The position numbers and the translations under genes are program-made. A model generated the notes under the pieces. It ran no database searches, had not been told where the DNA came from, and worked only from the letters and a program-made list of their open reading frames with translations. Of a DNA stretch of 64,000 nucleotides, positions 6,660-49,976 are shown piece by piece; the stretch's first letter is position 1; each line of letters begins with the position of its first letter. This stretch comes from an uncultured Ruminococcus sp. (GTDB lineage: Bacteria; Bacillota; Clostridia; Oscillospirales; CAG-272), in contig CAZULC010000003.1 of assembly GCA_964621165.1 (NCBI GenBank), forward strand, positions 30,633 to 94,632, read 5' to 3'.

Positions 6660-6666
6660 GACAAAA

Positions 6667-6708: not shown

Positions 6709-6758
6709 TTAAACCAAACTGTAGCTAATGTAAAACAGTATCTGGCGATAGTCAAATG

Positions 6759-8348: not shown

Positions 8349-8349
8349 T

Positions 8350-8913: not shown

Positions 8914-9089
8914 CTTCCCCCCTTTCACTATATTAACGCCGCAGAACTCCATTTTATCGCATTATTTCAAAATTTTTTTAAATTTCTGAATTCCAAAAAA
9001 AACTATTGCAATTCATGGACGAAAATGGTATAATTTATCTGTAAAAATATATTAAATGGTAAAAATCAAAGTAAAAAGAATGAATCAAA

Positions 9090-9869: not shown

Positions 9870-9939
9870 ATATAATACCACATTTTTGCAAAGAAGTAAA
9901 CAGAACCCAAAAAATTATCATCATACGGAGGTGCAGCTC

Positions 9940-10458
9940 ATGAAATGCCCAAGGTGTTCATGTACTGACAGTATAGTTGTAGACAGCCGGCCTGTGGAAG
10001 AGAATAACAGTACGAGGCGAAGACGTGAGTGTACTGCCTGCCACTTCCGTTTTACAACGTACGAATTTATAGACAACCTCAGCCCCATTGTCATCAAAAA
10101 GGACGGCTCCCGGGAACTATTCGACAAAAATAAAATCCTGTCGGGACTCATAAAAGCTTGCAATAAACGTCCGGTTGACGCGGTGAAGCTGGCAAACGAC
10201 ATTGAAGCCGAAATCAAAAGCTCCATGAAGACCGAAATCAAGTCAAAGAAAATCGGCGATATCGTGATGGAAAAGCTCAAGCAGCTGGATGACGTGGCAT
10301 ACGTGCGCTTTGCCTCAGTCCACCGGGAATTCAAGGATATAGAATCCTTCGCCGCGGAAATCACCAACCTGAAACGTGAAAAAGAGAAAGCCACACACGA
10401 CTTTGACTCCGACGAGGATGGAGATGGCAGAAAACGCCGCCGTTCGACGAAAAAGTAA
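9940..10458 (+). CDS. nrdR: transcriptional repressor NrdR
   Basis: MKCPRCSCTDSIVVDSRPVEENNSTRRRRECTACHFRFTTYE zinc ribbon plus ATP-cone. Start moved to ATG 9940, behind the GGAGGTG RBS. Has an acidic/basic C-terminal tail. Confidence 0.9.
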   Translation: MKCPRCSCTDSIVVDSRPVEENNSTRRRRECTACHFRFTTYEFIDNLSPIVIKKDGSRELFDKNKILSGLIKACNKRPVDAVKLANDIEAEIKSSMKTEIKSKKIGDIVMEKLKQLDDVAYVRFASVHREFKDIESFAAEITNLKREKEKATHDFDSDEDGDGRKRRRSTKK

Positions 10459-10462
10459 CTTA

Positions 10463-11001
10463 TGAAGTACACCATAAATCTGTATTTTGACAGGTAAACA
10501 GAGGAAAAACTGTCATATCTCGCAAAAAGTACAGCCGAAGAAACAGCCAGTGATAAAATTTCCGGATACAGCGTCCGACCATACCTCACATTAGCCTGCT
10601 TCAATGACGTTGACGAGCCGCAGTGTATAAGTCTGCTGAAAAGTTTTGCCAAAAGCCTTAAGGTCATATCCGTGAAAATCGGCTCCGTGGGAATGTTTAC
10701 CGACAGCAGCACTCTTTTCGGCATGCCAACCCTGACCGCCGGAATATTCCGTTTCCAAAGCGAGCTTCACGAAATCATGACGGACTTCGACAAAACCGGC
10801 TGGACCCTCTTTTGTCCTGACAACTGGTCGCCACACTGCACACTCGCATATACCTTGGAAGAAGGAAACGAAATCTTCCTCAGGGCGAGCAGGGTACTTC
10901 TGCAAAAATTCCGCCCCATGACAGGTGAGTTTTCGTCAATCGGACTTGTGAACATCACCCCTCCCGTAAAGGAAATCTTGGAGACCGAGTTGTCCCGGTA
11001 A
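10463..11001 (+). pseudogene. 2H phosphoesterase (LigT / 2'-5' RNA ligase-like) with in-frame TAA
   Basis: ATG 10463 gives MKYTINLYFDR, then TAA at 10496..10498. The same frame continues TEEKLSYLAK...RPYLTLA...PHCTLAYTLEE to 11001. The second HxTx motif is intact (HCTL) and the first is degenerate (YLTL). Confidence 0.7.
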
Positions 11002-24764: not shown

Positions 24765-25148
24765 ATGAAAACAATAGAACGCCTGCCAGATGCGGAGCTT
24801 GAAGTTATGCTGATTCTGTGGCACAATCAAACGCCAATGACCGCTGGAGACATAACAAAACTTCTCGCGGATACACACAGCTGGAAAAACGCAACGGTCC
24901 ATGTGCTGCTCGATCGGCTTGAAGAACGCGGATTCGTTTGCTGTGACAAAACCGGTTTCCGGCATCTGTTTGCGCCTGCCATATCGGAAGAAGACTACCG
25001 GCGGGGCGAGGAGCGGACTCTGATGAAGCGGTTTTTCGGCGGGTCTGCCAAGAACATGATTGCTTCATTGCTGAACACGGACGGTTTATCCGATGACGAC
25101 CTCGATGAACTGTCAGCAATGCTGAAACGTCGCAAAGGAGGAAACTGA
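24765..25148 (+). CDS. BlaI/MecI/CopY family transcriptional repressor
   Basis: 127 aa: LPDAELEVMLILWHNQTPMTAGDITKLL... winged helix. Its stop overlaps the start of the M56 gene (TGATG). Confidence 0.85.
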   Translation: MKTIERLPDAELEVMLILWHNQTPMTAGDITKLLADTHSWKNATVHVLLDRLEERGFVCCDKTGFRHLFAPAISEEDYRRGEERTLMKRFFGGSAKNMIASLLNTDGLSDDDLDELSAMLKRRKGGN

Positions 25149-28100
25149 TGGCAATTCGCGATTTTTTCATCGGCATTCTTGAATTGAACATCGGAATGTC
25201 GCTTCTGATTCTGCTCATGTTGGCACTGTTGAAGCTGATTGGCGGAAAATTTACGGCAAGATGCCGCTACATTTTGTGGACGCTCGTAATAATCCGGCTT
25301 GCCCTGCCATTTGGCTTCGGAATTCCTGCCATTATTGAGCTTCCAATTGGGGTGGAAACCCAGTCTCAGACGCCGGATGAACAGCAGCCTGTACAATACC
25401 CGCCGGATTACGCTCCCACATTTTCCGCATCTTCTGCTGTTCCCGTAACGACCGGCAAGCCGCTGCAGCTTCAGGAACCAGTAATGATTCCGGAGGTCCC
25501 CGAGACTGACCCGACGACTTCCGGACAAAATCAATCCATGACTTTGGAAAAAGCGGTAACATACTTGTCGTACCTGTATCTCACTGCGGCGGCGGTATAT
25601 CTTCTGTGGATTTTTCCTTCCTATTTATTATATACCTTTAAAATCACACGATGGGCAAAAGAGCCAGACGAAAGGACCCGGGCGGTTTATGATTCCGTTT
25701 GCGTCAATCAAAAAATCAGGCATGCACCGCGGCTTCTTATATCTTCTGATGTGAACAGCCCCATTGCCTTCGGACTTGTGAAAAGAAAAATCGTCCTGCC
25801 GGATATATTTCTCACGAATGAGGGGCTTGCGGGCACTTTGTCCCATGAACTGACTCACTGTAGGCGTGGAGATCTGTGGATCAAGGCTTTCTCGCTTCTT
25901 GCGCGGGCGTTCAACTGGTTCAATCCACTGGTTCACTGGGCCGCCATGCGTTGTGAAATGGAAATGGAACTGTCCTGCGACGAAGCTGTTCTTGCTGGGT
26001 GCGGAGAGGACGTCCGTGCGGCTTATGGTGATGTGATGCTCGACATAATACGTCAGTGCAGGCGCAAGGGCGGTGTGCTGACGACTCATTTCAATCCCAA
26101 AAAACGTGCGGTGAAGGCCAGATTTATAAATATAATGTACGGTTCGGGCAAGCGGCGGGGACTGTGGCTCATTGGGGCGTGCGTTGTACTGTGCGTGACA
26201 GCAGGAGCTGTTGTGGCGTGCAAAACTGTCAAACCGGATGAAAAACCTGACGCGGAAGCAGTTGACATGCCCGAAACCGATTCCGGCGAGAATCCAGAGG
26301 AAAACTCCGACGAGCTTGATTTGCTTGTCAGCAAAATTTACGAGCTCTCTCTCTCGCCCATCATGAAATGCTTTGCCACCGGATGCGGAAATGTGGAATA
26401 CGACATCAGCAGCTCGCAGTATACCGAAGACAACGAATACTATATAGTTACGGACCCATGGTTCGCTGAAGCCGGCGTCGACTCGGTGGAGTCATTGAGA
26501 AACTATCTCCTCGGCTATTTTTCACCTGAATATACCGACCGGTTGCTCGATTCCTCCGTCACCTTCCGGGATATAAACGGGAAGCTGTGTATTCATTTGT
26601 ATGACGGCGGTAACTCAGCCGTTTATGATTTCCCCGAATTTTCCGCGGAACACATAGATGACAGCAGAATCAGGCTGACCTGTTTATCAATCTGTAATAT
26701 GCCCCTCGTTGAGCCGGAGCCGTATCTGATGGAGTTTGAATTCGTTCAGACGGATGGCGGTTGGGTTATTGATGAAGCTCCGTCTTTGCTCGATTATTTA
26801 TGGATACGGTTCGGCGTGGAAAATGAGCTGACCGCCTCGCTTGTCGAAAAGATAAGTCAAGCCGCAGAGTCGCCTGTACTGAACTGCTTTGCCGTCGGTT
26901 GTCAGGCAGTCGGGCGCAGCGTTGAGAGTTCCGGCGTTCCTGATTACTATATGATCAATGATCAATGGTTCGAAGAAAACGGAATCAACTCAGTAAAGGC
27001 GGTGGAGGACTACCTGCTCACCAGCTTCACACCCGATTGTGTGGATAGACTGTTCTCGGAGAACCCAAGCCTTTTCAATGATATTGACGGACGCCTCTGC
27101 ATATCCGACTACGTGTCAGAAAATTCGGCTGTATATGAATTCCCAGACATTACGGCTTCATATACCTCAGACGACAAAATCTGTCTGACCTGCTACGTCA
27201 CACCGGGCGCGTCCTTCGAACATCCCGATCCATACAAGTTGTATTTTTACTTTGTCAAACAGGACGGCGAATGGCTGATTGATTACACGCCTTCGGTCAA
27301 GGATCTCGTAAGACTGCGCTTCAGTGAGAATATTTTGTGGGAATATAACGAGCTGTACGGAGAATTTCTCGCCACAGCTTTCGCGCCCTATACAAAGCTC
27401 CTCAGCGCGTCGGAATACCTTGACCTCGACTCAAACGGCGTACCAGAGCTGATCCTGCAGGATTTGGCTTATGGTGCATGCGAGATTTACACCATAGAAA
27501 ACGGAGAAGTCCGCGCCTTTTACAGTGGGGACAGCATTTTCACCCATTACTCCGACGAGCGAAAACCGCTGGCTCCACCGTCCGAAAACGCTAAAGACTT
27601 GATGTTTTACGGCGCCACAACGTTAATGTCCTCCGACATCCAGCCCACATTCCTACCCGCCGAGGAAAAGTCCACGGGGAGAAAAGGGTACATGCTCTGC
27701 TCCGTCTGGGGCAATGATATGACGTGTAACTGGGAATACTATTTCTTCACACAGGGAAGTGACGGCTTGCTGACGGTTGAACTTCTGGAAATATACCGCG
27801 CTGAGGCGGTGAACTCCAACACATCAAACGGCTGGGAATTCTACAGCGGACTTAATATGCTCTCGGGCAGTCAGTTTATGGCTGAGATAACCGAACTGTG
27901 GCGCAGCTTTGCCGACGAATACGGTGTGAGCTTCACGCAGGAGAACACAATGTGTCCGCTGACCCATCTGACTGAAAAGACTCCGCCAATCCACCTGCTG
28001 CTCGATATTCTTGAGTCCCTTGACGTGGATGAGCCAATGGTTCGTATCGCGAAAACAATACCGTCAACGCAAATGTCCATAAGTTCGGCCAATGGCTGGG

Positions 28101-28378
28101 GATTTGATGAAGCAAAGGAACTTGCAGGTCAGCTGCGTGAATTCAGTTATAAGCAGTCAGAGCAGTCAGAGGAGCCCGAAGACGCGCAGATTGCCGTAAT
28201 GTCGTCGACGGAACAGGATTTCTCGCTGTACTTCCACGAAAACTCCGACGTAGTGGAGATGAACCTTGACGGTGAGACATACGTCTTTGAAGCCGCACAG
28301 ATGACCGAAGAAACAGGATCAATCTTTGAAGCGGTGACAGCGTGGTTTGACGCAGCAGTTGAAAACGGGAAAAACTAA
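25148..28378 (+). CDS. BlaR1-like M56 metallopeptidase signal transducer with large non-PBP extracellular region
   Basis: 1076 aa with HELTHCRRGD (HExxH) in the M56 domain and 4 TM. The extracellular part has two ~150-aa internal repeats (residues ~395-545 and ~560-715) and no SxxK/PBP motifs. Confidence 0.8.
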   Translation: MAIRDFFIGILELNIGMSLLILLMLALLKLIGGKFTARCRYILWTLVIIRLALPFGFGIPAIIELPIGVETQSQTPDEQQPVQYPPDYAPTFSASSAVPVTTGKPLQLQEPVMIPEVPETDPTTSGQNQSMTLEKAVTYLSYLYLTAAAVYLLWIFPSYLLYTFKITRWAKEPDERTRAVYDSVCVNQKIRHAPRLLISSDVNSPIAFGLVKRKIVLPDIFLTNEGLAGTLSHELTHCRRGDLWIKAFSLLARAFNWFNPLVHWAAMRCEMEMELSCDEAVLAGCGEDVRAAYGDVMLDIIRQCRRKGGVLTTHFNPKKRAVKARFINIMYGSGKRRGLWLIGACVVLCVTAGAVVACKTVKPDEKPDAEAVDMPETDSGENPEENSDELDLLVSKIYELSLSPIMKCFATGCGNVEYDISSSQYTEDNEYYIVTDPWFAEAGVDSVESLRNYLLGYFSPEYTDRLLDSSVTFRDINGKLCIHLYDGGNSAVYDFPEFSAEHIDDSRIRLTCLSICNMPLVEPEPYLMEFEFVQTDGGWVIDEAPSLLDYLWIRFGVENELTASLVEKISQAAESPVLNCFAVGCQAVGRSVESSGVPDYYMINDQWFEENGINSVKAVEDYLLTSFTPDCVDRLFSENPSLFNDIDGRLCISDYVSENSAVYEFPDITASYTSDDKICLTCYVTPGASFEHPDPYKLYFYFVKQDGEWLIDYTPSVKDLVRLRFSENILWEYNELYGEFLATAFAPYTKLLSASEYLDLDSNGVPELILQDLAYGACEIYTIENGEVRAFYSGDSIFTHYSDERKPLAPPSENAKDLMFYGATTLMSSDIQPTFLPAEEKSTGRKGYMLCSVWGNDMTCNWEYYFFTQGSDGLLTVELLEIYRAEAVNSNTSNGWEFYSGLNMLSGSQFMAEITELWRSFADEYGVSFTQENTMCPLTHLTEKTPPIHLLLDILESLDVDEPMVRIAKTIPSTQMSISSANGWGFDEAKELAGQLREFSYKQSEQSEEPEDAQIAVMSSTEQDFSLYFHENSDVVEMNLDGETYVFEAAQMTEETGSIFEAVTAWFDAAVENGKN

Positions 28379-28562: not shown

Positions 28563-28591
28563 TTGACATATTATCGAAATCATGGTATGAT
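28563..28591 (+). promoter_or_regulatory. consensus sigma-70 promoter
   Basis: TTGACA (28563-28568), 17 nt, TATGAT (28586-28591). Confidence 0.7.
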
Positions 28592-28633
28592 TATTTCGGC
28601 AGACAAAATTTAACTGCTGAAAGGAGTTATACC

Positions 28634-28702
28634 ATGACTGTTTTTAAGTATCGTATCGCACCCGCGGCCTCACTGATTATCACCTTAATTGACGATTCAT
28701 AA
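28634..28702 (+). CDS. candidate small ORF (22 aa: MTVFKYRIAPAASLIITLIDDS)
   Basis: AAAGGAG RBS 6-7 nt upstream of the ATG and ~40 nt downstream of the consensus promoter. Stop lies 31 nt before the TTG start of the first ABC gene. Below the ORF-track size cut-off. Confidence 0.35.
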   Translation: MTVFKYRIAPAASLIITLIDDS

Positions 28703-28733
28703 TACCAAAATTTAATCAAAGAAGGTGAAATAA

Positions 28734-30561
28734 TTGTTCAAGCATAAGAAAAATCCCGATACCATAATGTTCACGGAGTCTTTGCCGCTGTTCGCCGCGT
28801 CAGTCAGACGGGTTTGGCGGATGGACAGGAAGTACATCCTTTTCTCCGACTTCGTCTACCTCCTCGGCACGGTCCCGCCCCTTCTGACCGCATACATCAC
28901 TGCGGTTTTCAACAAACGTTTAATCGCAGGCTAGCAGGCTTACCCGTCGTATTTCTGCGCGTTCTACCCACTCATCATAGCTTTCGCTGTATCTGTGCTG
29001 GAATTCGTTTTTTTCATGGTATGGCAGTGGGTCGGAAACCGCACATATGACCGGATTACTTCGATTCTTATGTGGGATTCGGTGAAAAAAGCGTCAAAAA
29101 TAGATTACGCCTCCTATGACAGTCCTGAATTCTACGACCGTATACAAAAAGGCTGGTCACTGGACGGGCAGCGGTTTGTCGCCAGCGCACAGAGCATTTT
29201 CAACACGCTGTCCTGTATTGCCGGGATGGCTGCGTATGCCGCGATTTTAGCCTATGTCGACTGGAAGCTGTTTTTGGTTCTGATCCTGCTGCGGATAGCA
29301 TTCACTCCGATTGACGAGAAAACCGGCAGGATGATCTACCGTTTCAACAACAAATTAGCCGAGCAGCGGAGGAAGGAGTCGTATTACCGCAGCTTTTTCG
29401 ACAACAAGGGAATGGCAGCTGAGGGCAAAATATTCGACCTCTACAGCTACGCACGGGAAAACTACATATCGGCGAACAAAAAGATATATAAGCAAACCTT
29501 TATATTTGAGCTTAAAATCAAGGGAATAAAGCTCCTGTCCGAGGTAATGTGGAATCTGCCAATCGCGGCGGTGTACATCTACCTGTCAGTCTGCGCGTAC
29601 AACGGCACGGTCAGCCTTGGGGACATGACAATGTGCATAGCGATGTATGTCGGCTTCATCAACCAGCTCTACAACACCATTGCCAACATAACGGGATTCC
29701 GAAACGACGCGGAAAGAGCGCGGTTTTCACGGGAATTTCTCGCTCCCCCCACAACAATCTGCGCCGATGGCGACGAATCAAAGCCAAAGGTTGACTCAGG
29801 TTTTGCCGGACATACGGTGGAATTTTGCGGCGTGTCCTTCGCATATCTCGGAATCGATAAGAAGGTTCTCGACAACGTCAGCTTTAAGGTTGGCTCCAAC
29901 AAAACCGTATCCGTAATCGGCGCAAACGGCGCAGGAAAGACTACACTTGTACATCTACTCATGCGGCTGTACGACCCCACCGAAGGCGTGATTCTGCTTG
30001 ACGGCAGGGATTTGCGCGAATACTCGGCGTCGAGCCTGTACGAAATTTTCGGCGTGCTGTTTCAGGACTACTGTGACTACGCCGTGAGCGCCTGGGAGTT
30101 CGTAACTCTGTCCACTGTCGAGCTGGATGTGAGTCGATTCAGCGACGCATTAAAGTCCTCTACATCATACAAATTCATAAATTCACTCAAAAACGGCATA
30201 AATACCGCCCCTGTCAAGTAGGTTCGACCCCGACGGAATCGAGCTGTCCGGCGGTTAGAAGCATCGGGTGGCACTTGCGCGGGCATATTACAAGGACGCA
30301 CCTGTCATAGTCCTCGACGAGCCGTCAGCCTCCATTGACCCGCAATCCGAGACGGAGATTCTCGCGTCCGTGAAAATGCTCCACGGCAAGCGGAATATCT
30401 GGCTCATTTCCCACCGGCTCAGCACCTGCGTCATTTCCTATTTGGTTCTGCTGCTGAAGGACGGCAGGCTTATCGGAAACGGTTCGCACGACGAGCTGAT
30501 GGAAAACAACGACGAGTACCGCCGTATGTTCAGACTCCAAGCCGACAGATATGAGGTGTAA
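28734..30561 (+). pseudogene. ABC exporter, fused permease/ATPase (pair A, gene 1), disrupted
   Basis: TTG start behind AAGGTG. In-frame TAG at 28932-28934, a +1 frameshift near 30200-30221 (GINT|PLSSRFDPDG), and an in-frame TAG at 30256-30258 exactly at the Q of the LSGGQ signature (IELSGG*KHRVALARAYYKDAPVIVLDEPSASIDP). Walker A GANGAGKTT is present. Confidence 0.8.
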
Positions 30562-30563
30562 TT

Positions 30564-32351
30564 ATGATTAATAAAAAAGCAATATCCGCTATATCCTGAG
30601 CCTAGCATTCGACAAAAGTCTGTGGTTCATCCTGATTATCCCCGTCTGCTCCATCATCGCGGGTCAGAGAGCTGTGGCGTCCAGTTGGCTCAGCGCACAG
30701 ATTTTTAATAAGCTCCAGCTTATAGTTACGGAAAATCACGACCCGGCTCTGCTGTATGACGCCATAATTTTCGGAATCCTGCTGTCGTTCACCACAATAG
30801 TGGTATGGCTCCTTAATACCGTATCGGGTCTCACAGAAAACCACTGGCGGGAGCACGTCAACTTATAAGTGCAGGAAAAATTCCTCGAGCGGGACTATAA
30901 AAGTGACATCGCGGACTTCGACAACCCTGATTTTCAGAACCGCCGCTCCGTCACCAAGAGAGTTGACCCCATAGGCGAGATCAAAACGGTCATCGACTGC
31001 CTAAGCGGGATTTTCGCAGCCCTGTCATTCACCGTGATTCTGTGGAATTACAGCCCCATCATGTTCATCGCCGCCGTTTTTGTGAAGCTGCCCACGTATT
31101 TTCACAAAAATTCACTCATGAAGGAGCGCCGGCAGTTCCGTATTTCCTCGGATGTACTGTGGCGTGAGAAGAACTATTATCGCGGCATTCCTGTATCCCG
31201 TTAAGAAGCGAAGGGATTCAAAATCTTTGACATGAAATCCTACGTCTGCGACAAATACGACGACGCGGTTGAGCGGTATTTCAAGGCGTACAGAAGCCAG
31301 TTCGTCAAAAATAAAACGAACATCGGAATCGACGACCACTACTCCGAGCTGATTACGGTTGTCGTTGAAATTATCGTGGGAACCTCGGTTTTCACGGGGA
31401 AAATGATGGTAGGCGACTTCACCCTCGTCGTTGCCGCGTTCAATAACTTGTCAGGCTGCGTTTGGAAATCTCGTCGGATTCGCGGCACAGCTGAATGATA
31501 TGCGGGATCAAAACAATATGCTTCGTGACTACCTTGAAGACAAGGCAATTTTCGACAGAGGCGAAGAATCCGGCATGGAAGTAAAGGAAGGCGCACACAC
31601 GATTGAAGTAAGAAACCTGTGCTTCACCTACCCCGGAGGTGACAAGCCTATTTTCTCGGACCTAAGCCTGACCATCTCCGCCGGCGAGACATGTGCTCTT
31701 GTCGGACTGAACGGAAGCGGAAAGAGTACGTTTGTCAACATGCTCCTGCGACTGTACAAGCCTGACAGCTGGGAAATCCTCCTTGACGGCGTGAATATCG
31801 AAAAATACGACGTCCATTCCTACTATAAAGCGATCGCATGCGTGTTCCAGAGCACCACAAAATACGCCATGCCCATCCGTGACTACATCGCGTCGGGAAA
31901 GGACTGCGACATAGACAGAGCAAAAGCGGCGGTCAACGAGGTTAGACTGGGCGATTGGTGCAGGGAACTGCCTCACGGATTGGACACCATGCTGACCTGC
32001 CCGTTTACGTCTGAGTCCGATTCAGTGGAGCCGTCAATTGGACAATGGCAGAAGCTTTCGATTGCCCGTGCAATATACAAGGACTCGTCAATTATGATTC
32101 TAGACGAGCTATCAGCCAGCCTCGACGTTGACTCGGAAAACGTGATTTTTAGCTATATAGAGCGTCTGTTCGCTAAGAAAACGGCACTGCTGATCTCCCA
32201 CAGACTGTCAAATGTGGTCGGATGCGATAAAATCTTTCTGATCATCGGCGGTCGATTGGTAGAAGAGGGAAGTCACCGCGAGCTTATGGAAAAACGCAGA
32301 CGTTACGCCGAGTTGTTCATGTCACAGGCGGAGATGTACAAAGCCGGATAA
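30564..32351 (+). pseudogene. ABC exporter, fused permease/ATPase (pair A, gene 2), disrupted
   Basis: ATG 30564. Frameshift in the A6 run 30573-30578, in-frame TAA at 30866-30868 and at 31202-31204, and a frameshift near 31450. The NBD (GLNGSGKST ... MILDELSASLD) is otherwise readable. Confidence 0.8.
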
Positions 32352-32478
32352 AACAGGATTCACCTGAGTTTACTGTAAAATAAATCCAACTCCTGCATAT
32401 TCGTGCTGGAATTTTTGTATGAACTGCATTTTATGGTGAAAAGCACAAGCCGAAGCATAACACAGCTGTGTCTGCCTA

Positions 32479-32507
32479 TTGACATCCGCAAAAACCAATG
32501 CTATAAT
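32479..32507 (+). promoter_or_regulatory. consensus sigma-70 promoter of the two-component genes
   Basis: TTGACA (32479-32484), 17 nt, TATAAT (32502-32507). Confidence 0.7.
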
Positions 32508-32539
32508 TAATCCATAACCAAAACGAAAGAGCAGCTCCA

Positions 32540-33241
32540 ATGAACCTGAAAATAGCAATCTGCGACGACGACGCAACCCAGCGGACATATCTACAAGACA
32601 TCCTCATCCCGTGGGCAAAGCGAAACCGCCATCTTATTGAAATCAAACAATACGCAAATGCAAAACAATTCTTCTTTGACTATGATGAAGAAAAGGACTT
32701 CGACATACTTCTTCTCGACGTGGAAATGCCGGAGGTGAACGGAATTGAGGTCGCGAAACGGGTGAGAGAGAAGAATTCCACCGTCCAGATTATCTTCATC
32801 ACCGGGTATTACGAGTATTTCAGCGACGGATTTGACGTCTCAGCTCTCCATTACCTCATCAAACCCGTGGATAAAGCTAAGCTATGCCCCGTGCTGGACA
32901 AAGCTGCGGACAATCTACTCTGCCGTCAGCGTTCGGTTCTTGTCTCCACCCCGGATGAGGACATAAAAATCTCTCTCGCCGACATCTGCTACGTGAATTC
33001 GGAAAATGTCTACGTCAACGTCCACACGGTTCACGGAAATCATCGTACACGAATGACCCTCGCAAAATTCGCCGAGCAGCTTGATGGAACCTTTTTCAAA
33101 ATCCACCGCTCATACATAGTCGGGTTGAAATACGTTAAAAAAATCTCACGCAGCGAGGTCACAATGTTAAACGGCGACGTACTGCCAATCAGCCGGGGAC
33201 TGTACGACGAGATTCACGCCGCGGTAATCAAGTATCTTTGA
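32540..33241 (+). CDS. LytTR/AlgR family response regulator
   Basis: REC domain (IAICDDD...LLLDVEMPEVNGIEV) plus LytTR DNA-binding domain (FFKIHRSYIVGLKYVKKI). Confidence 0.9.
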   Translation: MNLKIAICDDDATQRTYLQDILIPWAKRNRHLIEIKQYANAKQFFFDYDEEKDFDILLLDVEMPEVNGIEVAKRVREKNSTVQIIFITGYYEYFSDGFDVSALHYLIKPVDKAKLCPVLDKAADNLLCRQRSVLVSTPDEDIKISLADICYVNSENVYVNVHTVHGNHRTRMTLAKFAEQLDGTFFKIHRSYIVGLKYVKKISRSEVTMLNGDVLPISRGLYDEIHAAVIKYL

Positions 33242-33250
33242 GGTGCATGC

Positions 33251-33895
33251 ATGATTTTAGACAAGCTAATATCAAAACGGGTCGCCGCCTTTGAACAGGA
33301 ACTTCTACAGAAGTATTACGCCGAGGTCGAGAACATGTACGACAAAATGCGCGGCTGGCGTCACGACTACCGGCACCACATCCAGACCATGAAGGTCCAC
33401 ATGGCAAACGGCGAGATTGAGGAAATCGGGCGTTATCTCGACATGCTCGACGACGACCTGACCAACGTGGAAACCGTAATCAAAACCGGCAACCGCATGG
33501 CTGACGCAATCCTCAACAGCAAGCTCTCCCTCGCCGCCCAAAAGGACATAAAGGTCAAAGCGGAGGCGAAAATCCCCGTGTCCCTTTCCGTTTCCGAGAT
33601 TGATTTGTGCGTGGTAATCGGCAACCTGCTCGACAACGCCATCGAAGCCTGCATGGAGCTTCCGCCAAAGGAGCGGCTGATTCGGATTTACATGGAGATG
33701 AAGGGAAACTATCTCTACATTGCTCTGACCAACACCGCCGCCAGAAAGAAGAAAAGCAGCTTCCGCACGACAAAGGGCGACGGTCACGGCTTCGGCATAA
33801 GCCGGGTGGACGCGGTGGTGAAGAAGTACGGCGGCTACGTCACAAGAGCGTCGGAGGACGGGGCTTTTTCCACCGAGGTCCTGCTTCCGATGTAA
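33251..33895 (+). CDS. AgrC-type (HPK10) histidine kinase core without transmembrane or sensor domain
   Basis: 214 aa. H-box WRHDYRHHIQTM, N-box IGNLLDNAIEA, G-box GDGHGFGISRV. No hydrophobic segment. Starts 10 nt after the RR stop, behind a GAGGTG RBS. Confidence 0.8.
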   Translation: MILDKLISKRVAAFEQELLQKYYAEVENMYDKMRGWRHDYRHHIQTMKVHMANGEIEEIGRYLDMLDDDLTNVETVIKTGNRMADAILNSKLSLAAQKDIKVKAEAKIPVSLSVSEIDLCVVIGNLLDNAIEACMELPPKERLIRIYMEMKGNYLYIALTNTAARKKKSSFRTTKGDGHGFGISRVDAVVKKYGGYVTRASEDGAFSTEVLLPM

Positions 33896-33921
33896 AATAA
33901 ACAAAAAAATGCAATTGACAA

Positions 33922-33978
33922 CAAATTTCAGACATTTGGCATCAAATTGCACTTTTTCATTTCCGGAAATGTTATAAT
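33922..33978 (+). promoter_or_regulatory. candidate LytTR operator (direct repeats) plus extended -10 promoter
   Basis: CAAATTTCA (33922-33930) and CAAATTGCA (33943-33951) match 8/9 and start 21 bp apart (9-bp repeat plus 12-bp spacer). TGtTATAAT at 33970-33978 lies 21 nt downstream. Confidence 0.5.
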
Positions 33979-34073
33979 GTAGTCAAGAGGTGCGGCGTGA
34001 AGATATAGTTGATCACAGTTTATTTAGCTGTCAGCCGACCGGAATTCTTTCATATCTATTTGTGGAGGAGAAA

Positions 34074-35894
34074 ATGAAAACCAAAAAAGAAAAACGAAAG
34101 TATTCACGCATTGACTCAATCCTGTTTGGAATGAAATGGATGTGGAAATTCGACAAAAGTTTTATATTCTATGTATTTTCCAACATTCCGTTAATAATAA
34201 TCATTCCCCTCGCGTCTTCCTATTTCACGAAATACCTTATAAACGCGCTGGAACGCGGGGCGGCATTCAAGGAACTCGCGCTGATTGTAGCCGGCTTCAT
34301 CGGGGGAATCATGCTTCTCAATTTTTTAGACATGCTTTTATCCACGCGCCTCGGTGCAAAAACTTATTATCCGACTATGATTTGTCAGACAGAAATGAAC
34401 GCGATTGTTAACAAAGAAAAGGACTATGAAAACACCGAAAAGCAGGATTTCAAGAAAGCATATCAATATTCTTACAATGACGCTTGCAGTGGGAACTGCG
34501 CATTGGAGACTGTCTGGAAGGATATTTCCAATTTTTTGGTCTCCCTCCTCGGAATCGGCGTGTACGGCTCACTGCTGGGACTGCTCAACCCCATACTTTT
34601 CGCTGTCGTTGTTGCTGTGTCAATTGCGTCGTACTACACAACCCGCTGGGAGAGCCTGTATTATGAAAAGCACAAGCATATGTACGAAAAGGAACAGCGC
34701 AAGCTCAGCTATCTCAAGGGACTATCGGAAAACTTTTCCGTCGCAAAGGATATAAAGCTCTACGGCATGGAGTCGTGGCTAGACAAAATGGTGCGGGATT
34801 ACCAGATCTACGTCCTCATGTGGGAGAACAGATGCAGTCTTCGGGGCGTTTTCGCTTCCATTTTTTCGGGAATCATGAGCTTTGTGCAGAACAGCGTGGC
34901 TTATATAGTACTCATCGGAACATTGTTTTCCGGAGGTATGTCAGTGGGCGACTTCGTGTTCTACTTCGGTATAGTCGGCAGCATTGCCGGATTTCTCACC
35001 GGAATCATCACAGGCATCGCAAGACTTAACAACCGCGCCGAGAAAATCGACTACTACCGGGATTTCTTCGCATATTCCAACGTAATGAACTACGGAAAAG
35101 GCTGCGAGCTGCCTGAAAGTGCGGTCAAAATCGAGCTTCGCGACGTGTGGTACCGTTACGACGGAGCCGAGGACTACACCATCAGGGGAATCAACCTGAC
35201 TATCGACTCTGGTGAGAGCCTCGCACTTGTGGGCATGAACGGCGCGGGTAAAACCACGCTAATCAAGCTCATCTGCGGCTTCTATCTTCCTACAAAGGGT
35301 GAAATCCTCGTAAACGGCAGGAAAATCGAGGAATATAACATAAACGAATACTATTCCATCATATCCGCCGTGTTCCAGAAAATCAACCCCGTCGCCTTTT
35401 CCATATTTAATTTCGTGGCGAGCTCTGACCTGACCCGGGAAAACGCCCGTGAGGAAGCAATAGACGCCATGAAGAAAGCCGGAATCTGGGAGAAAATCGA
35501 GAGTCTCGAGTACGGAATCGACACCCACCTGATGAAGGGTATATACGACGACGGCGTGGATTTGTCCGGCGGGGAAATGCAGAAGCTGGTTCTGGCGCGG
35601 GCAATCTACAAAAACGGTCACATCCTCATCCTCGACGAACCCACCGCAGCCCTCGACCCAATCGCGGAAAACAACCTGTACCTGCAATACCGCGCACTGA
35701 CAAAGGAAAAAACCTCAATCTACATCTCACACCGCTTCGCCTCCACAAAATTCTGCGATAGGATTGTACTGCTTGAGGACGGCAGAATCACGGAAAGTGG
35801 CACACATGACGAGCTGATGAATCTGAACGGACGGTACGCGTATATGTTCGGCGTTCAGGCAAAATATTACAGGGAGGGCGAAAAAAATGCTTAA
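34074..35894 (+). CDS. ABC exporter, fused permease/ATPase (pair B, gene 1), intact
   Basis: Start ATG 34074 behind GGAGGAG. 6 TM region, Walker A GMNGAGKTT, LSGGEMQKLVLARA signature, ILILDEPTAALD Walker B. Confidence 0.85.
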   Translation: MKTKKEKRKYSRIDSILFGMKWMWKFDKSFIFYVFSNIPLIIIIPLASSYFTKYLINALERGAAFKELALIVAGFIGGIMLLNFLDMLLSTRLGAKTYYPTMICQTEMNAIVNKEKDYENTEKQDFKKAYQYSYNDACSGNCALETVWKDISNFLVSLLGIGVYGSLLGLLNPILFAVVVAVSIASYYTTRWESLYYEKHKHMYEKEQRKLSYLKGLSENFSVAKDIKLYGMESWLDKMVRDYQIYVLMWENRCSLRGVFASIFSGIMSFVQNSVAYIVLIGTLFSGGMSVGDFVFYFGIVGSIAGFLTGIITGIARLNNRAEKIDYYRDFFAYSNVMNYGKGCELPESAVKIELRDVWYRYDGAEDYTIRGINLTIDSGESLALVGMNGAGKTTLIKLICGFYLPTKGEILVNGRKIEEYNINEYYSIISAVFQKINPVAFSIFNFVASSDLTRENAREEAIDAMKKAGIWEKIESLEYGIDTHLMKGIYDDGVDLSGGEMQKLVLARAIYKNGHILILDEPTAALDPIAENNLYLQYRALTKEKTSIYISHRFASTKFCDRIVLLEDGRITESGTHDELMNLNGRYAYMFGVQAKYYREGEKNA

Positions 35895-37722
35895 GGACAA
35901 CATTACACTGCGCGGACTGAAAATGTACTCCGGATATAACAAAAGATATTTCCCGCTGAAATTCATTCAGACCGTGTTCGGGAGCATCTCCCCCTACTTC
36001 AATCTGTGGATGTCCGCCCAAATCGTCACCTCGCTGTATGAAGGGAAGGAGAGGGAATACATCTTTACCCTTGTGACGATAACCCTCCTCGGTAACCTGT
36101 TTGTACATATTATGGGAGCGATTCTCGGCAGGTACGTGGGCATTGAATTCAAGAAGCTGTGCAACAATGAAAGCGCCGCCTTCAGCCATAAAACCGTGTC
36201 CCTCGATTACGATAAATTAGAGGACCCCGCTGTCCGCAAGCTGCGCAGAAAAATCATAGAAAACGCGTGTATCAACAACTACGGCGTCAAATCACTGCGC
36301 ATTAATATTGAAGGACTGTTCAACCGCTTTATAAATATTTTTTTCTCGGCGGTCCTCTTTATCGAGATGTTTTCCGAGATAGCCAAAGCGGGTTTTCAGC
36401 CCCTGTCCGTCATTCTTCTGATAGGGCTGGTCGGATTTATGGTTCTTTCAATTATATACGACAACTTTATACAAAAGCAAAAAGCGCAAACGAACAATCG
36501 GCTTGGAGACCTTCTCCTGCGCGAAAATGAGCTTGACAGAGGTCATCAGCTTGACGGAATGGACTGCCGCATATATAAGCAGCAGGATATATTGTCGCGC
36601 ATTGAAGCCAAAATAAACGAAGACCACTTTAAGATTTTTACAGCGGTAATGAAACAGAATATTAGATTCAGCTTACCGAGTTCTATTTTATATAAGGTGT
36701 CGGAGGTGTGCGCGTACCTGATAATCTGCTTATACTGCGGCATGGGTATTTTCCCAATCGGCGGCGTGATAAAGTATGTAGGGTACCTGAAACGAGTGAC
36801 CAATGATATTCAAAAAACCTTCTACCATTTTTCCGAGCTGAAAAACAACGAGCCATTCCTCAAGACCTATCTGGAATACTTTGAAATTCCAAACAGCATG
36901 TACCAAGGCTCACTGGCGGTGGAAAAACGCAGCGACAAAAAGTTCGACATAGAGTTTCGCGACGTCAGCTTCAAGTACTCCGGCTCGGACGAGTACGCGC
37001 TGAAGCATATCAATCTCAGCCTGAAGGTAGGGGAACGTCTGGCAGTGGTGGGCATGAACGGCAGCGGAAAAACTACATTTATTAAGCTTCTCTGCCGCCT
37101 GTACGACCCCACGGACGGGGAAATTCTGATGAACGACTTCAACATCCGCAAATATAACTACCGCGAGTATCTTGACATATTCTCGGTGGTGTTCCAGGAA
37201 TACACGCTTTTAGCGCTCCCCCTCGGAAACAACATCGCCTGCGATAAATCGTGGGACGAGGCAAAGGCTGAGCGGCTGATTGACGAGGTGGGCTTCGGCG
37301 GACGGTATTCGGAAATGCCGAAAAAGCTGGAAACTCCCTTGTACAAGAATTTCGACGAGGACGGCGTGAACATTTCCGGCGGTGAAGCCCAGAAAATAGC
37401 CCTCGCCCGTGCGCTGTACCGTGACTCGCCGTTTATAATCCTCGATGAACCCACGGCGGCACTGGACCCCATAGCGGAGGTGGAAATTTACTCAAAATTC
37501 GACAACATTGTCGGGGACAAGACCGCGATTTACATAAGCCATAGGTTGTCGTCATGCCGGTTCTGCGACAAAATAGCGGTGTTCGACCACGGCGAGATTG
37601 TACAGATTGGCACCCATGACGAGCTGCTCTCCGACGAAAAAGGGAAGTACTATGAGCTATGGAACGCTCAGGCGCAGTATTACACAAACCAAAAGAAAAG
37701 CGCTGTGAGTGAGATAAGCTGA
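35887..37722 (+). CDS. ABC exporter, fused permease/ATPase (pair B, gene 2), intact
   Basis: Overlaps the upstream gene by 8 nt. GMNGSGKTT, ISGGEAQKIALARA, FIILDEPTAALD. Confidence 0.85.
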   Translation: MLKDNITLRGLKMYSGYNKRYFPLKFIQTVFGSISPYFNLWMSAQIVTSLYEGKEREYIFTLVTITLLGNLFVHIMGAILGRYVGIEFKKLCNNESAAFSHKTVSLDYDKLEDPAVRKLRRKIIENACINNYGVKSLRINIEGLFNRFINIFFSAVLFIEMFSEIAKAGFQPLSVILLIGLVGFMVLSIIYDNFIQKQKAQTNNRLGDLLLRENELDRGHQLDGMDCRIYKQQDILSRIEAKINEDHFKIFTAVMKQNIRFSLPSSILYKVSEVCAYLIICLYCGMGIFPIGGVIKYVGYLKRVTNDIQKTFYHFSELKNNEPFLKTYLEYFEIPNSMYQGSLAVEKRSDKKFDIEFRDVSFKYSGSDEYALKHINLSLKVGERLAVVGMNGSGKTTFIKLLCRLYDPTDGEILMNDFNIRKYNYREYLDIFSVVFQEYTLLALPLGNNIACDKSWDEAKAERLIDEVGFGGRYSEMPKKLETPLYKNFDEDGVNISGGEAQKIALARALYRDSPFIILDEPTAALDPIAEVEIYSKFDNIVGDKTAIYISHRLSSCRFCDKIAVFDHGEIVQIGTHDELLSDEKGKYYELWNAQAQYYTNQKKSAVSEIS

Positions 37723-37804
37723 TGACCTTCCAACAATACTGCGTGTGGAGTATGAACAGCACATACTGATGCGCCTCCGCATCAACATTTTTACAAGTCA
37801 AAAA

Positions 37805-46253: not shown

Positions 46254-48071
46254 TTGAATAAGATTAAGCGGCACATTACCAACGTGAAAAAATCCTGCAC
46301 AGCGGAATGGTATGTGGTAAAGCTGCTGTTTTCATCCCAGCCGGTATTAGCAGTGTTGTACATCATTTTCCACACGCTGAGCTATCCTGTTTCTCTCGTC
46401 AATATCTTCCTTTGGAAGGAGGTGCTGGACGCCCTGACTGAAGGGAAAAACACGGATTTGAAGCGCATAATATTTTTAGTATGTCTGTACCTGCTTCTGA
46501 CGATTTTTATATCCTGCTTGGGCAAAATCAATTTTGGTATAATCCGCCCAGCCTTGTATATGAAATCCCAAAAGCAGCTGGACGAGCGCATTATGAAGAA
46601 AATGTCAGAGCTGGATTTATCCTTTTTTGACGAACCCGAAAATCAGGATATGCTCCAGGTTGCTCAGAACAGCAAGCAGCAGGTCAGCGACGCCATGACA
46701 TATTTTGTCCGCGAGTCTGTCAATACTGTTACATTTGTTATAGGGCTGGACTGTTTTCTCTCAATTTAGACTGTAGTCGGATATGCGTATTTGCTGACAA
46801 ATCTACCGAGTGTCCTGATCAACCATAACAATAATGTGAAAATGGATCGTTTATCAATCAGAAGTGTTTCGGAAAATCGGGAAAAGGACTATTATCGGAG
46901 TCTGCTGACAACGAGCAGCTACGCAAAGGATTTACGGCTGTATAATCTGCGCACATACTGGCTGGAAAAATACCAAAACATATGGAATAAGCTTAGAGCT
47001 GAGCGTGCGAAAATTTTCACCCGCGGCGTAATGCTCTCGGGCATATCCCTCTTGTTGTCAGCCGCGGGAAGTATTCTTATTGTAGTATATTCCTCATATT
47101 CGGTGCTGAAAGGCGGAATGACAATCGGCACATTAACTATGTTTTTGTCCTTCGCGGAAAAATCCAAAGTATGTTTTTGGCATTATGTCATTCCTTTCCC
47201 AATCATATCAAGGTCACGATTCCTCATATTCTTCGTTTTATGGAATTTTTGTCCCTTCCTTTTCAGAATATCAAGGGAGAGGAGCCAATCGAACAGAAAC
47301 CCCCGTCAATTGAGTTTCAGAATGTTTCCTTCCATTATCCAAATGATGAGAAGAATGTTCTGCAAAACCTGAATTTAACCATTGCTCCCGGTAAAAAAGT
47401 CCTTTTGGTAGGGCAGAACGGCTCAAGAAAGACCACAATCATGAAATTGCTGCTCAGGTTTTACCGACCGACAGAAGGTCAGATTCTGATTAACGGCAAA
47501 AATATAGAATCTTATTCGCAAAAAGAATTATATCGTGTTTTCAGCGTATGCTTCCAATAAACTGAGCAATATGCCATGACCCTGCGGGAAAATATCGCAA
47601 TATTCGACGTTGACAGGATAGATGAAACGGAATCCATAAAGTCGGCTGCCCATAAGGCTGAGGTTGACGCGATTTACAAGTCCCTTCCCGAGGGCCTTGA
47701 CGCGGACTTGACAAAGAGCTTCAAACAGTAAAGGTCATGTGCTGTCCGGCGGGCAGTGGCAGAAGATTGGGCTGTCAAGAGTGTTTTAAGTGACTCAGTC
47801 TTTATGATTTTTGACGAACCTTCATCCCTTGAATCCGGACGCTGAAAACTTCGTGTTTGAATCCATCAGGACCTTGTGTCAGAACAAAGGCGGATTGATT
47901 ATCTCCTGCAGGCTGACCGCAGTTCCTTTGGCGGACGAAATTATATTCTTGAATGATGGAAAAATCAGCGAAGCCGGAACGCACAGTGAATCAATTAAAC
48001 ATAACGGTGAATATGCTAACATGTACCGACTGCAGGCTGACAAATATAAACTGATCAAGAAGGAGGCATAA
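46254..48071 (+). pseudogene. ABC exporter, fused permease/ATPase (pair C, gene 1), heavily disrupted
   Basis: Readable pieces occur in all three frames. In-frame TAA at 47558-47560 (VCFQ*TEQYAMTLRENI), LSGGQWQKIGLSRVF in one frame then LSDSVFMIFDEPSS in another (T4 run near 47783), further shifts near 46770, 47170, 47730 and 47830. Walker A is degenerate (GQNGSRKTT). Confidence 0.75.
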
Positions 48072-48074
48072 ATC

Positions 48075-49858
48075 ATGACTGAAATAAAGAAGCAAATCAA
48101 ATACGTCATTCAGGCGACAAAGCTGATTTATATGGCGTCGGGGAAATATTACATATGGATTTTTCTCCTGAGTCTGCGCCTGTCCGTTCTGCCGTATGTA
48201 CCGATGTTTTTATGACGTTCCCTATTGAATGCTTTGACGGCGGAAAGTAAAGACAGTCATGCAGTGGTATTTTTCATAGGATGCTACTGCCTCAGTGTTT
48301 TTCTGTCGGGACTATTCAACCGTATCTATAGAATAGTTTCCTACCAATATAACGACAGAGTGGACTATTATATAGATAATCTTCTGATTGAAAAGATTGC
48401 GGGGGCGGATATTTCCTTCTTTGACAGCAGTGAAATTGCGGACAAGCTCAGGAATGCCTCCAACTATATGCGCGGCACAACAAAATCAATCGTCATGTTT
48501 ATATTCTACATAATGCAGAGCTTCCTCAGAATTGCGGTTTCCGTTTTGATTATGATAGAACTGGATTATAAAGTCCTGCCGCTCATTCTTCTGTTTAGAG
48601 TGGTTCCGATATTGACGCAGAAAAAGAACAGGGAGGAGCAGTACAATTTTAATAAAGAGCAGTTAATGAGACAGAGAAAAATGGATTACATAAAAGAACT
48701 GTTTTTCAGTGGCGCAAAATATGAGCTTCGTCTGTATGTATGAGTTTAAGGATTTTTTACTCGGAAAATATAAAAATGAATGGGATGAGTATTATTCCCA
48801 AAACAAAAAGCTGCAAATCCGACTCTGAGGGCGTGAATGTGCTTCTGTATTTATGGAAGTTGGTATCGAAGCGATTGCGATTTTCTTCTCGGTGGAAAAA
48901 ATGCTTTCGCAGACGACGACAGGAATCGGCTACGTCACCTATTTTATTTCCACTGTAAATCAAATCAAGACAAATCTGCTCGGACTTTCGAATATTTATA
49001 CGCGCTTTACCCAAGAATGTACACAGCTCGACGATATTATGGACTTCATTTCCTACACCCCGAAAACAGAGATCGGCGGCAGTATGTGTCCGAAGATGAA
49101 TTGTATCCCGAGAACCACATTAAAAAATGTGTCATTCAAATATCCGAATTTCGACGAATATGTTTTGAAAAATTGCAGCTTTACCATAAATCCCAGAGAA
49201 AAAATCGGTCTGGTTGGAAATAACGGCGCCGGAAAAAGTACGATTGTGAAATTGCTGTGCAGATTCTACGATCCGACCGAAGGAGTCATTGAAGTAAATG
49301 GAGGTGACGTCAGGGAATATGAGCTGTCAGCACTGCGGCGGCTGTATGGTGTTGTTTCAGGATTATGTGCGGTACAGCTTTTCCTTGCGGGAAAATATCG
49401 CATTGTCGGATATTGAAAAGAAGGATTGATGACCGGAAGATAAATGCCGCAGTGTCCCGCAGCCATGTGTCCGACTTTGCAGGGGAATGGGATAATGCTA
49501 TGGAAGCATCTGACCCGGCAGTTCGATAAAGAGGGCAAAGAGCTGGCCGGAGGTCAATGGCAGAGTGTTTCTTTGGCGAGAGCGTTTTTCCGTGACGCGC
49601 CGGTTGTACTGCTTGACGAACCATCCGCCGCACTTGACCCCATTGCGGAGTATGAGATTTTTGAAGATTTCGCAAGGCTGTCAAAGGATAAAAGCGCGGT
49701 TTTGATTTCCCACCGGCTGTCGAGCATTACGCTGTGTGACAGGATTTTAGTTTTGTCGGACGGACACATCATCGAGCAGGGTTCCCACGCGGAGCTGATG
49801 AAGCAGAACGGGAGAATACGCTCGACTGTTCAGCCTTCAGGCGAGCAAGTATATGTGA
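48075..49858 (+). pseudogene. ABC exporter, fused permease/ATPase (pair C, gene 2), heavily disrupted
   Basis: ATG 48075 behind AGGAGG. In-frame TGA at 48213-48215 (PMFL*RSLLNALT), frameshifts near 48740, 48840, 49370-49440 and 49815. GNNGAGKST and LLDEPSAALDP are readable. True stop inferred at 49856-49858 (YARLFSLQASKYM*). Confidence 0.75.
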
Positions 49859-49976
49859 GCTTTGGGATTACAATGTGATTGAATCAACGCCTATGTTGAA
49901 ACGCGACTGTTTCCTGTGCCGTGATATACGTCTTATGTAGAGAAAGAAATTCCCGCAGAAGCATACACGTCCCGCG

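Follow-up and report, generated by a model that had tools for sequence, protein, structure and literature searches.

The subject of this study is a 64-kb stretch of DNA (64,000 nucleotides, the window) from an uncultured Ruminococcus sp. (contig CAZULC010000003.1), in which a soluble histidine kinase is encoded between a LytTR-family response regulator and a pair of ATP-binding cassette (ABC) exporter genes. Comparative analysis divides the region around these genes into two independent units rather than one composite locus. Unit A (positions 32479-37784) is well supported as a predicted efflux/export module of four genes that is conserved and self-contained. Unit B (28563-32351) is a dead remnant that consists of a 22-codon open reading frame (ORF) and a decayed ABC pair, and it lies outside the Unit A module. 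The best explanation of the whole is that Unit A forms a circuit in which the exporter sets the input to the kinase, with Unit B a separate relic, and we give this reading a probability of about 0.45. A first-pass annotation had joined all of these elements into a single module. Its promoter, 22-codon ORF, two dead ABC genes, LytTR regulator, 214-residue kinase, and intact ABC pair were all confirmed on the plus strand, with order and positions unchanged. The locus is not one module, because the small ORF and the decayed pair are missing from all other copies of the cassette.

In the proposed circuit, a strong promoter free of repeats would transcribe the LytTR regulator and the soluble kinase core. 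The phosphorylated regulator would bind two 16-bp repeats just upstream of a -10 element that lacks a usable -35, and the repeat-bound regulator would turn on a heterodimeric ABCB-type exporter. The exporter may then set kinase activity via contact at the cytoplasmic face, a need-based sensing of 'flux', and basal transporter would come from read-through of the upstream promoter. The substrate would most likely be a toxic compound or peptide met in the gut. The wiring steps, from the promoter through the phosphorylated regulator on its repeats to the switched-on exporter, are well supported as predictions. At the level of sequence, the intact catalytic kinase core, the canonical receiver, and the confinement of the phased repeats to the ABC promoter are either evident or strongly supported.

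Results

The kinase is a conserved HPK10-type core without a sensor

The kinase gene (33251-33895) encodes a soluble, minimal histidine kinase of 214 residues that was assigned to the HPK10/AgrC type from its HATPase_c_5 domain, HMMER searches, and an AlphaFold2 model. The protein has a 37-residue linker helix, a dimerization and histidine phosphotransfer (DHp) domain with His38 in an RHDY motif, and a catalytic and ATP-binding (CA) domain, and nothing more. The Pfam match to HATPase_c_5 has E = 1.5e-22, a match to SPOB_a is weak, and the best NCBIfam match is AgrC with 44 bits compared to an equivalog cut-off of 500. The H-box (GWRHDYRHH, containing His38) and the N-box (GNLLDNAIEA) are both of the HPK10 type. 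Among PDB sequences, the AgrC kinase module 6E52 is the closest match (E = 2e-9). The AlphaFold2 model (mean predicted local distance difference test score, 80.9) has a helix at residues 2-52 that bears His38, a second helix at 56-97, and an alpha/beta ATP-binding domain at 101-213, and a Foldseek search with this model returned kinase cores, AgrC-GCN4 among them. The polytopic N-terminal sensing domain of HPK10 kinases, with 5-8 transmembrane (TM) helices, is absent, and the protein begins 37 residues before the phospho-histidine. These matches place the kinase in the HPK10/AgrC lineage without that family's defining sensor feature. Database names of its relatives are merely 'GHKL domain-containing protein' or 'sensor histidine kinase'.

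The absence of a membrane domain is a family trait. A search of 5.8 billion proteins gave at least 8000 matches, and the best 120 of these protein clusters are all 214-215 residues long with 81-100% identity. A scan with one genome per GTDB species gave at least 587 relatives; the best 80 were examined, and they are 57-89% identical and all without a TM helix (0-TM). Their hosts are Lachnospiraceae, Oscillospiraceae, and Ruminococcaceae, and cultured carriers include Roseburia inulinivorans DSM 16841, Faecalibacterium sp. An122, and Butyrivibrio sp. INlla18. Over the more than 120 protein clusters and the 80 species genomes, the length stays at about 214-220 residues with no TM helix, and neither the close 0-TM relatives nor any orthologue from the 80 genomes has a 19-residue hydrophobic window. 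All 75 distinct N termini begin 36-37 residues ahead of RHDY, with M-x-[LF]-[FL]-[SD]-K-x-I-[DA]-K-[RK]-[IV]-A-A-[YF]-[QE] as a common motif. Among 1.84 billion cluster representatives, HMMER identified 27,072 relatives, of which the closest are short and 0-TM. The next have about 236-255 residues, one N-terminal TM helix, and 37-50% identity, and those further out are classical polytopic kinases of 370-450 residues with 4-8 TM helices and 35-47% identity. The linker between the last TM helix and the histidine has the same length in the membrane-bound and polytopic relatives, so the 0-TM form corresponds to a kinase from which the membrane domain was cleanly cut away where the linker helix begins.

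The 214-residue protein might also be read as a local truncation, or an assembly artefact, of an AgrC-type membrane kinase, a reading that could point to the 4-8 TM helices of the nearest long relatives. We regard its probability as negligible, because the length and the start point are kept over more than 120 clusters and 80 species. There is also no room for a lost N terminus, since the stop codon of the regulator gene lies 9 nt before the kinase start. In a crude neighbor-joining tree, the 0-TM kinases fall mostly in two neighboring groups and kinases with one TM helix (1-TM) are scattered, which hints at more than one event of sensor reduction. A single origin of the 0-TM form was considered and set aside, as this tree is too weak to count events. 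Plasmid-borne or named relatives were also considered, and the plasmid matches reach no more than 35% identity and are polytopic kinases, either agr-like or RiPP-linked (RiPP, ribosomally synthesized and post-translationally modified peptide).

The four-gene cassette recurs in gut Clostridia

The cassette has the order LytTR regulator, 0-TM kinase, ABC, ABC. Three homologues on long contigs have the same order with a regulator of 233 residues, a kinase of 214, and ABC proteins of 606-620 and 600-601 residues; their flanking genes are wholly different, and neither the small ORF nor an extra ABC pair is present in them. Gene neighborhoods were counted at 80 genome loci, 74 of them informative for the regulator and 56 for the ABC pair. 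The regulator is directly upstream of the kinase in 66/74 loci, and a same-strand ABC pair is downstream in 54/56. No fifth conserved gene accompanies the cassette in the three long contexts or across the 80 genomes. Carriers include well over 100 gut Clostridia genomes and metagenome contigs. The first-pass annotation had raised the idea that a sensor-less kinase is recurrently linked both to paired exporters with fused transmembrane and nucleotide-binding domains (TMD-NBD) and to an upstream small ORF. The link to the exporter pair holds, and the small ORF is absent from all other cassettes. That annotation had also allowed that the homologues might always carry an N-terminal TM domain and have no conserved linkage to ABC pairs, and neither is the case.

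Some loci have more than one exporter pair. Tandem cassettes are present in L033 (7289-15779) and L050 (1445-12518), and extra exporter pairs lie beside the cassette in L032, L060, and L071. In L032 (61-12549), the regulator is immediately preceded by two more intact ABC pairs. This arrangement is the intact equivalent of that in the window, except that the exporters belong to the same family as those of the cassette. One genome, Lachnospiraceae UBA7188 (L077, 8001-8648), has a rare orphan form of the two-component system, in which the regulator and the 0-TM kinase are not followed by an ABC pair within 8 kb and no repeat pair is obvious.

When 1-TM kinases were used to seed a scan of metagenomes, relatives with 0, 1, and 3-4 TM helices were recovered as well as polytopic ones. 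The 1-TM examples (L088-L090, L095, L100, L124, L128, and L137), the 3-4-TM examples (L122 and L154), and the polytopic examples (L127, 409 residues; L142, 429 residues; and L153, 391 residues) lie without exception between an upstream regulator gene and a downstream ABC pair. The ABC linkage predates sensor loss, because the 1-TM and polytopic relatives keep the same gene order. Judged from gene order, these examples show a whole HPK10 clade that appears dedicated to the control of ABCB-type exporters, with the membrane domain progressively lost within it. This progressive loss fits a transporter that took over sensing.

The regulator operon lacks repeats and the exporter promoter carries them

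The regulator-kinase operon is preceded by a perfect sigma-70 promoter (32479-32507; TTGACA-17-TGnTATAAT, 12/12 matches) that has no LytTR repeats. The regulator gene (32540-33241) encodes a 233-residue LytTR-family response regulator with Pfam matches to Response_reg (E = 1.9e-18) and LytTR (E = 1.9e-20). Its receiver has a canonical acidic pocket, D60, and K108. The best NCBIfam matches are BtsR, LytR, and AgrA, all far under their cut-offs (AgrA, 41 bits compared to 400). Autoregulation of the operon was considered and rejected: LytTR motif pairs 5' of the regulator gene were found in 0/66 orthologous loci and are also absent at this position in the window. A constitutive two-component system with an inducible exporter and no autoinduction is well supported as a prediction, because the sites are never upstream of the regulator.

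The ABC promoter is organized differently. Two LytTR-type direct repeats, a distal copy CAATTGACAACAAATT (33912-33927) and a proximal copy CATTTGGCATCAAATT (33933-33948), were located by repeat search and conservation and are spaced exactly 21 bp apart. The CAAATT(T/G)CA 9-mers noticed in the first-pass annotation are the 3' ends of these two 16-bp units. The proximal repeat ends 24 nt upstream of the -10 hexamer TATAAT (33973-33978), which was read from the sequence and has the same layout in the orthologues. The sole -35-like hexamer, TTGCAC (33946-33951), is 21 nt from the -10, which is too far for an unassisted promoter, and the ABC promoter should therefore need an activator. No terminator is predicted between the kinase stop codon and this promoter.

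Conservation carries the case for the repeats as operator sites. The motif CAWTTGRYAWCAAAWT with up to 2 mismatches has only two matches in the window, a count that is not significant by itself because two or more matches occur in 44/100 shuffles; the significance lies in the 21-bp phasing and in conservation. The copies of the best 14-bp direct repeat lie exactly 21 bp apart in 55/75 distinct orthologous kinase-to-ABC intergenic regions compared to 14/375 shuffled controls. Loci whose regulators are 56-77% identical to that of the window have the CAWTTGRYAWCAAA motif. Where the regulators are about 40% identical, CAATTCGTCCCC repeats occur instead, with the same spacing and position and with up to five copies in L057, and the two motif classes follow the regulator clade. 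Motif pairs are found before the ABC genes in 28/29 and 33/37 loci. These data support the repeats as conserved LytTR-type operator sites with predicted regulator binding, and they bear out the LytTR periodicity that had been noted before the intact pair. The kinase-to-ABC regions of L057 and L070 have 3-5 tandem copies of the 21-bp unit (CGATTCGTCCCCCAAAAAGAA) rather than two, which suggests that the operator array grows by unit duplication.

The predicted target is an intact exporter pair

The two intact genes encode fused TMD-NBD exporter subunits that were identified by Pfam and motifs. Subunit A (34074-35894) has 606 residues starting from MKTKKEK, and subunit B (35887-37722) has 611 residues and a gene that overlaps that of subunit A by 8 nt. 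A terminator-like hairpin with a T-run, from hairpin prediction, marks the end of the ABC operon (37767-37784). Both subunits have a Walker A motif, an LSGGE or ISGGE signature, a Walker B motif with the D-E pair, and an H-loop histidine, and their ABC_tran matches have E = 1e-28 and 6.5e-27. Sequence matches in the PDB are ABCB1, MsbA, and Sav1866, which assign the subunits to the ABCB (type IV) fold class. The best families are MsbA, HlyB, and the NHLP exporters, all under cut-off, and the sequence similarity is mostly limited to the NBD and the last TM helices. Neither subunit has a C39 peptidase domain (TIGR01193, 159 and 155 bits compared to a cut-off of 524). A degenerate ATP site in the heterodimer was considered and was not seen, as both sites look canonical. 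Subunit A orthologues in the close clade are 55-74% identical. Gene layout and motifs identify the pair as a predicted heterodimeric ABCB-type (type IV) exporter.

The source of the kinase signal

Some input must reach the DHp-CA core or the 37-residue N-terminal helix, because the protein has no sensory room, the cassette has no fifth gene, and the kinase is under strong selection. We infer that the exporter itself is the most economical source of this signal, a plausible though tentative choice, and one that the first-pass annotation had raised by analogy with Bce-type modules. Transporter-coupled kinases have precedent (PMC4513084, PMC10314905). The more specific proposal, that the soluble AgrC-type kinase docks on the cytoplasmic face of the exporter and reads its transport cycle, would be a case of flux sensing by a membrane-free kinase, and we hold it loosely, as possible.

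Several observations weigh against the exporter as the sensor. The polytopic relatives are linked to ABC pairs equally, so the linkage shows the ABC operon as the target and not as the sensor. Two of the 56 genomes lack a co-directional pair, with a convergent pair in L059 and none in L077. The nucleotide-binding sites are canonical, and the exporter sequences show no sign of signaling adaptation. In the Bce modules the contact runs through TM helices, which the 214-residue kinase lacks, and we know of no precedent for a soluble kinase that docks on NBDs or coupling helices. Between clades, the kinase is 57-63% identical compared to 35-45% for the regulator and 33-45% for the exporters, and this high conservation fits a universal cytoplasmic cue at least as well.

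The same comparison bears on an alternative in which the soluble kinase senses a cytoplasmic cue directly on its DHp or CA domain and the exporter is merely the output. The cue could be the exporter substrate inside the cell, a nucleotide ratio, or a second messenger. The kinase is the best conserved of the four proteins between clades (57-63% compared to 33-45%), its N terminus is sharply defined and conserved, and the cassette requires no further gene, all as direct sensing would have it. But the AlphaFold2 model has no pocket-forming domain beyond DHp and CA, 214 residues leave no space for a PAS, GAF, or similar module, and direct ligand sensing by a bare DHp-CA core is rare. We consider direct sensing unlikely, yet a serious alternative.

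The apparent loss of the membrane domain in one clean cut, right where the linker helix begins, is also what would be expected if the kinase partnered with an unlinked membrane sensor or accessory protein, such as the split-off membrane domain, and the local ABC pair were only the target. Split sensors are known in other two-component systems. This arrangement is improbable given that no conserved fifth gene occurs in the three contexts or the 80 genomes, and genomes with tandem cassettes (L033 and L050) would need a matched partner for each cassette.

A kinase that has lost its sensor could instead be essentially constitutive, a fixed-gain activator whose output, if regulated at all, would depend on acetyl phosphate, growth state, or the balance with phosphatase activity. 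The AgrC sensor holds its kinase in check via a twist of the linker and an R238-Q305 latch, and the R238A mutant is constitutively active (PMC6755735). Removal of a sensor that holds back the core in this way, together with the consensus promoter of the regulator-kinase operon, would agree with a constitutive kinase. An always-on switch is not expected to last in well over 100 genomes and metagenome contigs with the kinase as the best conserved protein, and a plain constitutive promoter would suffice for the same outcome. A constitutive kinase thus also has a low probability. The exporter-set input remains our preferred reading over these alternatives, and a peptide signal is considered below with the ORF that might encode it.

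Unit B is the relic of a different exporter system

Unit B starts with a near-consensus sigma-70 promoter (28563-28591; TTGACA-17-TGnTATGAT, 11/12 matches, extended TG). It is followed by the 22-codon ORF (28634-28702), read from the sequence, which has 22 sense codons encoding MTVFKYRIAPAASLIITLIDDS, a good ribosome-binding site (GAAAGGAG), and no cysteine. The ORF is not conserved. Searches of about 170 fetched loci with tblastx and blastn-short found no homologue, RNA folding at the ORF was not significant (z = -1.7), and there was no match to an Rfam family. A conserved signaling or leader peptide was rejected on these grounds. An attenuator was rejected as well, as just 31 nt separate the ORF from the next gene and leave no room for one. 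The peptide does not resemble the Cys-rich precursors encoded with the homologous exporters, and the ORF may be fortuitous.

The first-pass annotation had offered a peptide made in the locus as a possible input to the kinase. In such a quorum-sensing-like circuit, the product of the 22-codon ORF or another locus peptide would be exported and sensed. The ORF does have a promoter and a good ribosome-binding site, and LytTR/HPK10 systems are classically peptide-sensing. Against this, the ORF is missing from every other cassette and is located in a dead operon. The locus encodes neither an AgrB-like protein nor a C39 peptidase, no part of the kinase is extracellular, and the two-component operon is not autoinduced. 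A locus peptide is an unlikely signal because the ORF is absent elsewhere and is unrelated to the precursors near the homologues of the decayed pair, which itself is unrelated to the cassette. We give the quorum-sensing circuit very little credence.

The remainder of Unit B consists of two fused TMD-NBD exporter pseudogenes, defined by ORF reading and alignment, with at least 7 disabling lesions in total. Pseudogene 1 (28734-30561) has at least 3 lesions: an in-frame TAG at 28932, a frameshift near 30200-30225, and a TAG at 30257-30259 that changes the LSGGQ signature to LSGG-stop. Pseudogene 2 (about 30575-32351) has at least 4. Its start is marked by TAATAA at 30569-30574 with no in-frame start before 30674, and it has further lesions at 30866 (TAA), 31202 (TAA), and about 31431-31498 (frameshift). 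Over 9197 bp, a Logan assembly of run SRR10165008 matches the window with 100% identity, pseudogene lesions included; therefore the lesions are no quirk of one assembler.

The decayed pair was considered as a paralogue of the cassette exporters, and this was rejected. In the alignments of pseudogene 1 that extend from the TMD into the start of the NBD, identity to the cassette exporters is 22-30%, and the relatives of the decayed pair are found in radical S-adenosylmethionine (SAM) clusters. The nearest intact homologues are 53-60% identical pairs of 610 and 598 residues that belong to radical-SAM peptide clusters with Cys-rich precursors in three independent contexts. In these RiPP clusters the exporter pair is preceded by a 97-residue protein, a radical-SAM enzyme, a Cys-rich precursor of 46-48 residues, and a second radical-SAM enzyme. 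In contrast, the window has no radical-SAM genes and no Cys-rich precursor, and its exporter pair is dead. These similarities identify the decayed pair as the probable remnant of an exporter type that serves radical-SAM peptide clusters.

The clusters themselves form a recurrent and apparently unnamed type, found in L168 (3774-10629), L170 and L171 (both 3428-10626), and L172 (2135-8963). The gene order is a 97-residue acidic protein, a radical-SAM enzyme (469 residues), the precursor (46-48 residues, for example MTLDELFNVAVPMTGCESQNVNNHCGTGNGSNQLDCTSSGKPTTSC), a radical-SAM enzyme (415-472 residues), and the ABC pair. A classical membrane-sensor counterpart that ties HPK10 systems to radical-SAM peptides is present on plasmid pRUMAL03 of Ruminococcus albus 7 (L174, 4634-6651 and 8225-10382), where a polytopic AgrC-like kinase and a LytTR regulator adjoin two huazacin-family RiPP precursor genes and a radical-SAM enzyme.

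Two further features of the window touch on Unit B. Directly upstream of the relic promoter, a plus-strand gene (25148-28378) encodes a 1076-residue BlaR1-type M56 peptidase that carries an IseA-like (DL-endopeptidase inhibitor) domain and a long duplicated C-terminal region. Another fused TMD-NBD exporter pair on the plus strand (46254-49878) is likewise fragmented into many ORFs (46254-46769, 46791-47372, 47171-47560, 47811-48071, 48225-48743, 48853-49416, and 49444-49878), so that 2/3 of the exporter pairs in the window are pseudogenes.

Discussion

Significance of the cassette

AgrC/LytTR two-component systems are the textbook sensors of extracellular peptides. The present data describe a large branch of this class that has no sensor, is still under strong selection, and is found next to a single kind of ABC exporter. 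A search of the open-access full-text literature turned up no account in which a soluble HPK10 kinase is combined with a LytTR regulator and paired ABC genes, and the four-gene cassette appears to be uncharacterized. The proposal of an uncharacterized signaling/export module thus survives for the cassette; the small ORF and the decayed pair are not part of it. Should the exporter prove to be the sensor, need-based control by flux would no longer be confined to Bce modules; it would also operate in the main class of drug and peptide exporters and through a soluble kinase. If the kinase docks on the exporter, the series from polytopic to 1-TM to 0-TM would record a stepwise hand-over of sensing from kinase to transporter. 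Even if the exporter is not the sensor, the cassette would be an abundant, uncharacterized inducible export system in dominant gut commensals. Its clean and predictable operator-promoter pair could be used as a reporter for what gut bacteria export.

Comparison with known systems

The closest relatives by sequence are the AgrC-AgrA, ComDE, BlpHR, and FsrCA systems. Unit A shares with them the RHDY H-box, the NLLDNAIEA N-box, the HATPase_c_5 domain, and AgrC as the best PDB match. A LytTR regulator is encoded next to the kinase, and direct repeats occur in a pair phased by 21 bp, 5' of a promoter whose -35 is poorly spaced. Unlike these systems, Unit A has no polytopic sensor and no autoinduction of the kinase-regulator operon, and its only conserved target is the ABC exporter pair. 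An AgrD-like precursor, an AgrB-like protein, and a C39 exporter are all absent from the cassette and its orthologues. Unit A is not an agr, com, or blp locus.

Two Firmicutes comparisons concern the transporter. NatK-NatR with natAB of Bacillus subtilis also has a LytTR-family regulator that acts mainly on a neighboring ABC transporter operon, but NatK is a membrane kinase and NatAB is an ABC-2-type system for sodium extrusion rather than a pair of fused ABCB half transporters. The heterodimeric exporters BmrCD, LmrCD, PatAB, EfrCD, and TM287/288 resemble the intact pair in their adjacent, overlapping fused TMD-NBD genes for proteins of about 600 residues. Heterodimers of the BmrCD type usually have one degenerate ATP site, whereas both sites look canonical here, and BmrCD is controlled by a leader-peptide attenuator and not by a two-component system.

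Transporters act as co-sensors in several systems, including PhoR with PstSCAB and PhoU, DcuS-DctA, and UhpB-UhpC. PhoR is the nearest in concept, as a kinase without an extracytoplasmic sensor that reads the state of a transporter, for Pst via the cytoplasmic ATPase side. In contrast to the kinase of Unit A, PhoR is anchored in the membrane, has a PAS domain, and needs the adaptor PhoU, and its transporter is an importer that is not the main target of the kinase.

The Bce modules (BceRS-BceAB of Bacillus subtilis; PMC4513084, PMC10314905) are the nearest in circuit design. Both have a two-component system beside the ABC transporter that it induces and a kinase without a sensory domain of its own. 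The structural elements differ. BceS is anchored by two TM helices and contacts its permease in the membrane, whereas the Unit A kinase has none; BceR is an OmpR-type and not a LytTR-type regulator; and BceAB consists of a separate ATPase and a 10-TM FtsX-type permease with a large extracellular domain rather than two fused ABCB-type half transporters. For Bce, the coupling of kinase and transporter is proven; for Unit A we only propose it. Unit A meets no structural criterion of a Bce module and shares with it the regulatory logic alone. That logic joins a constitutive two-component system, whose operon is not autoregulated, to an inducible transporter, and by analogy with Bce it suggests need-based control of the Unit A exporter.

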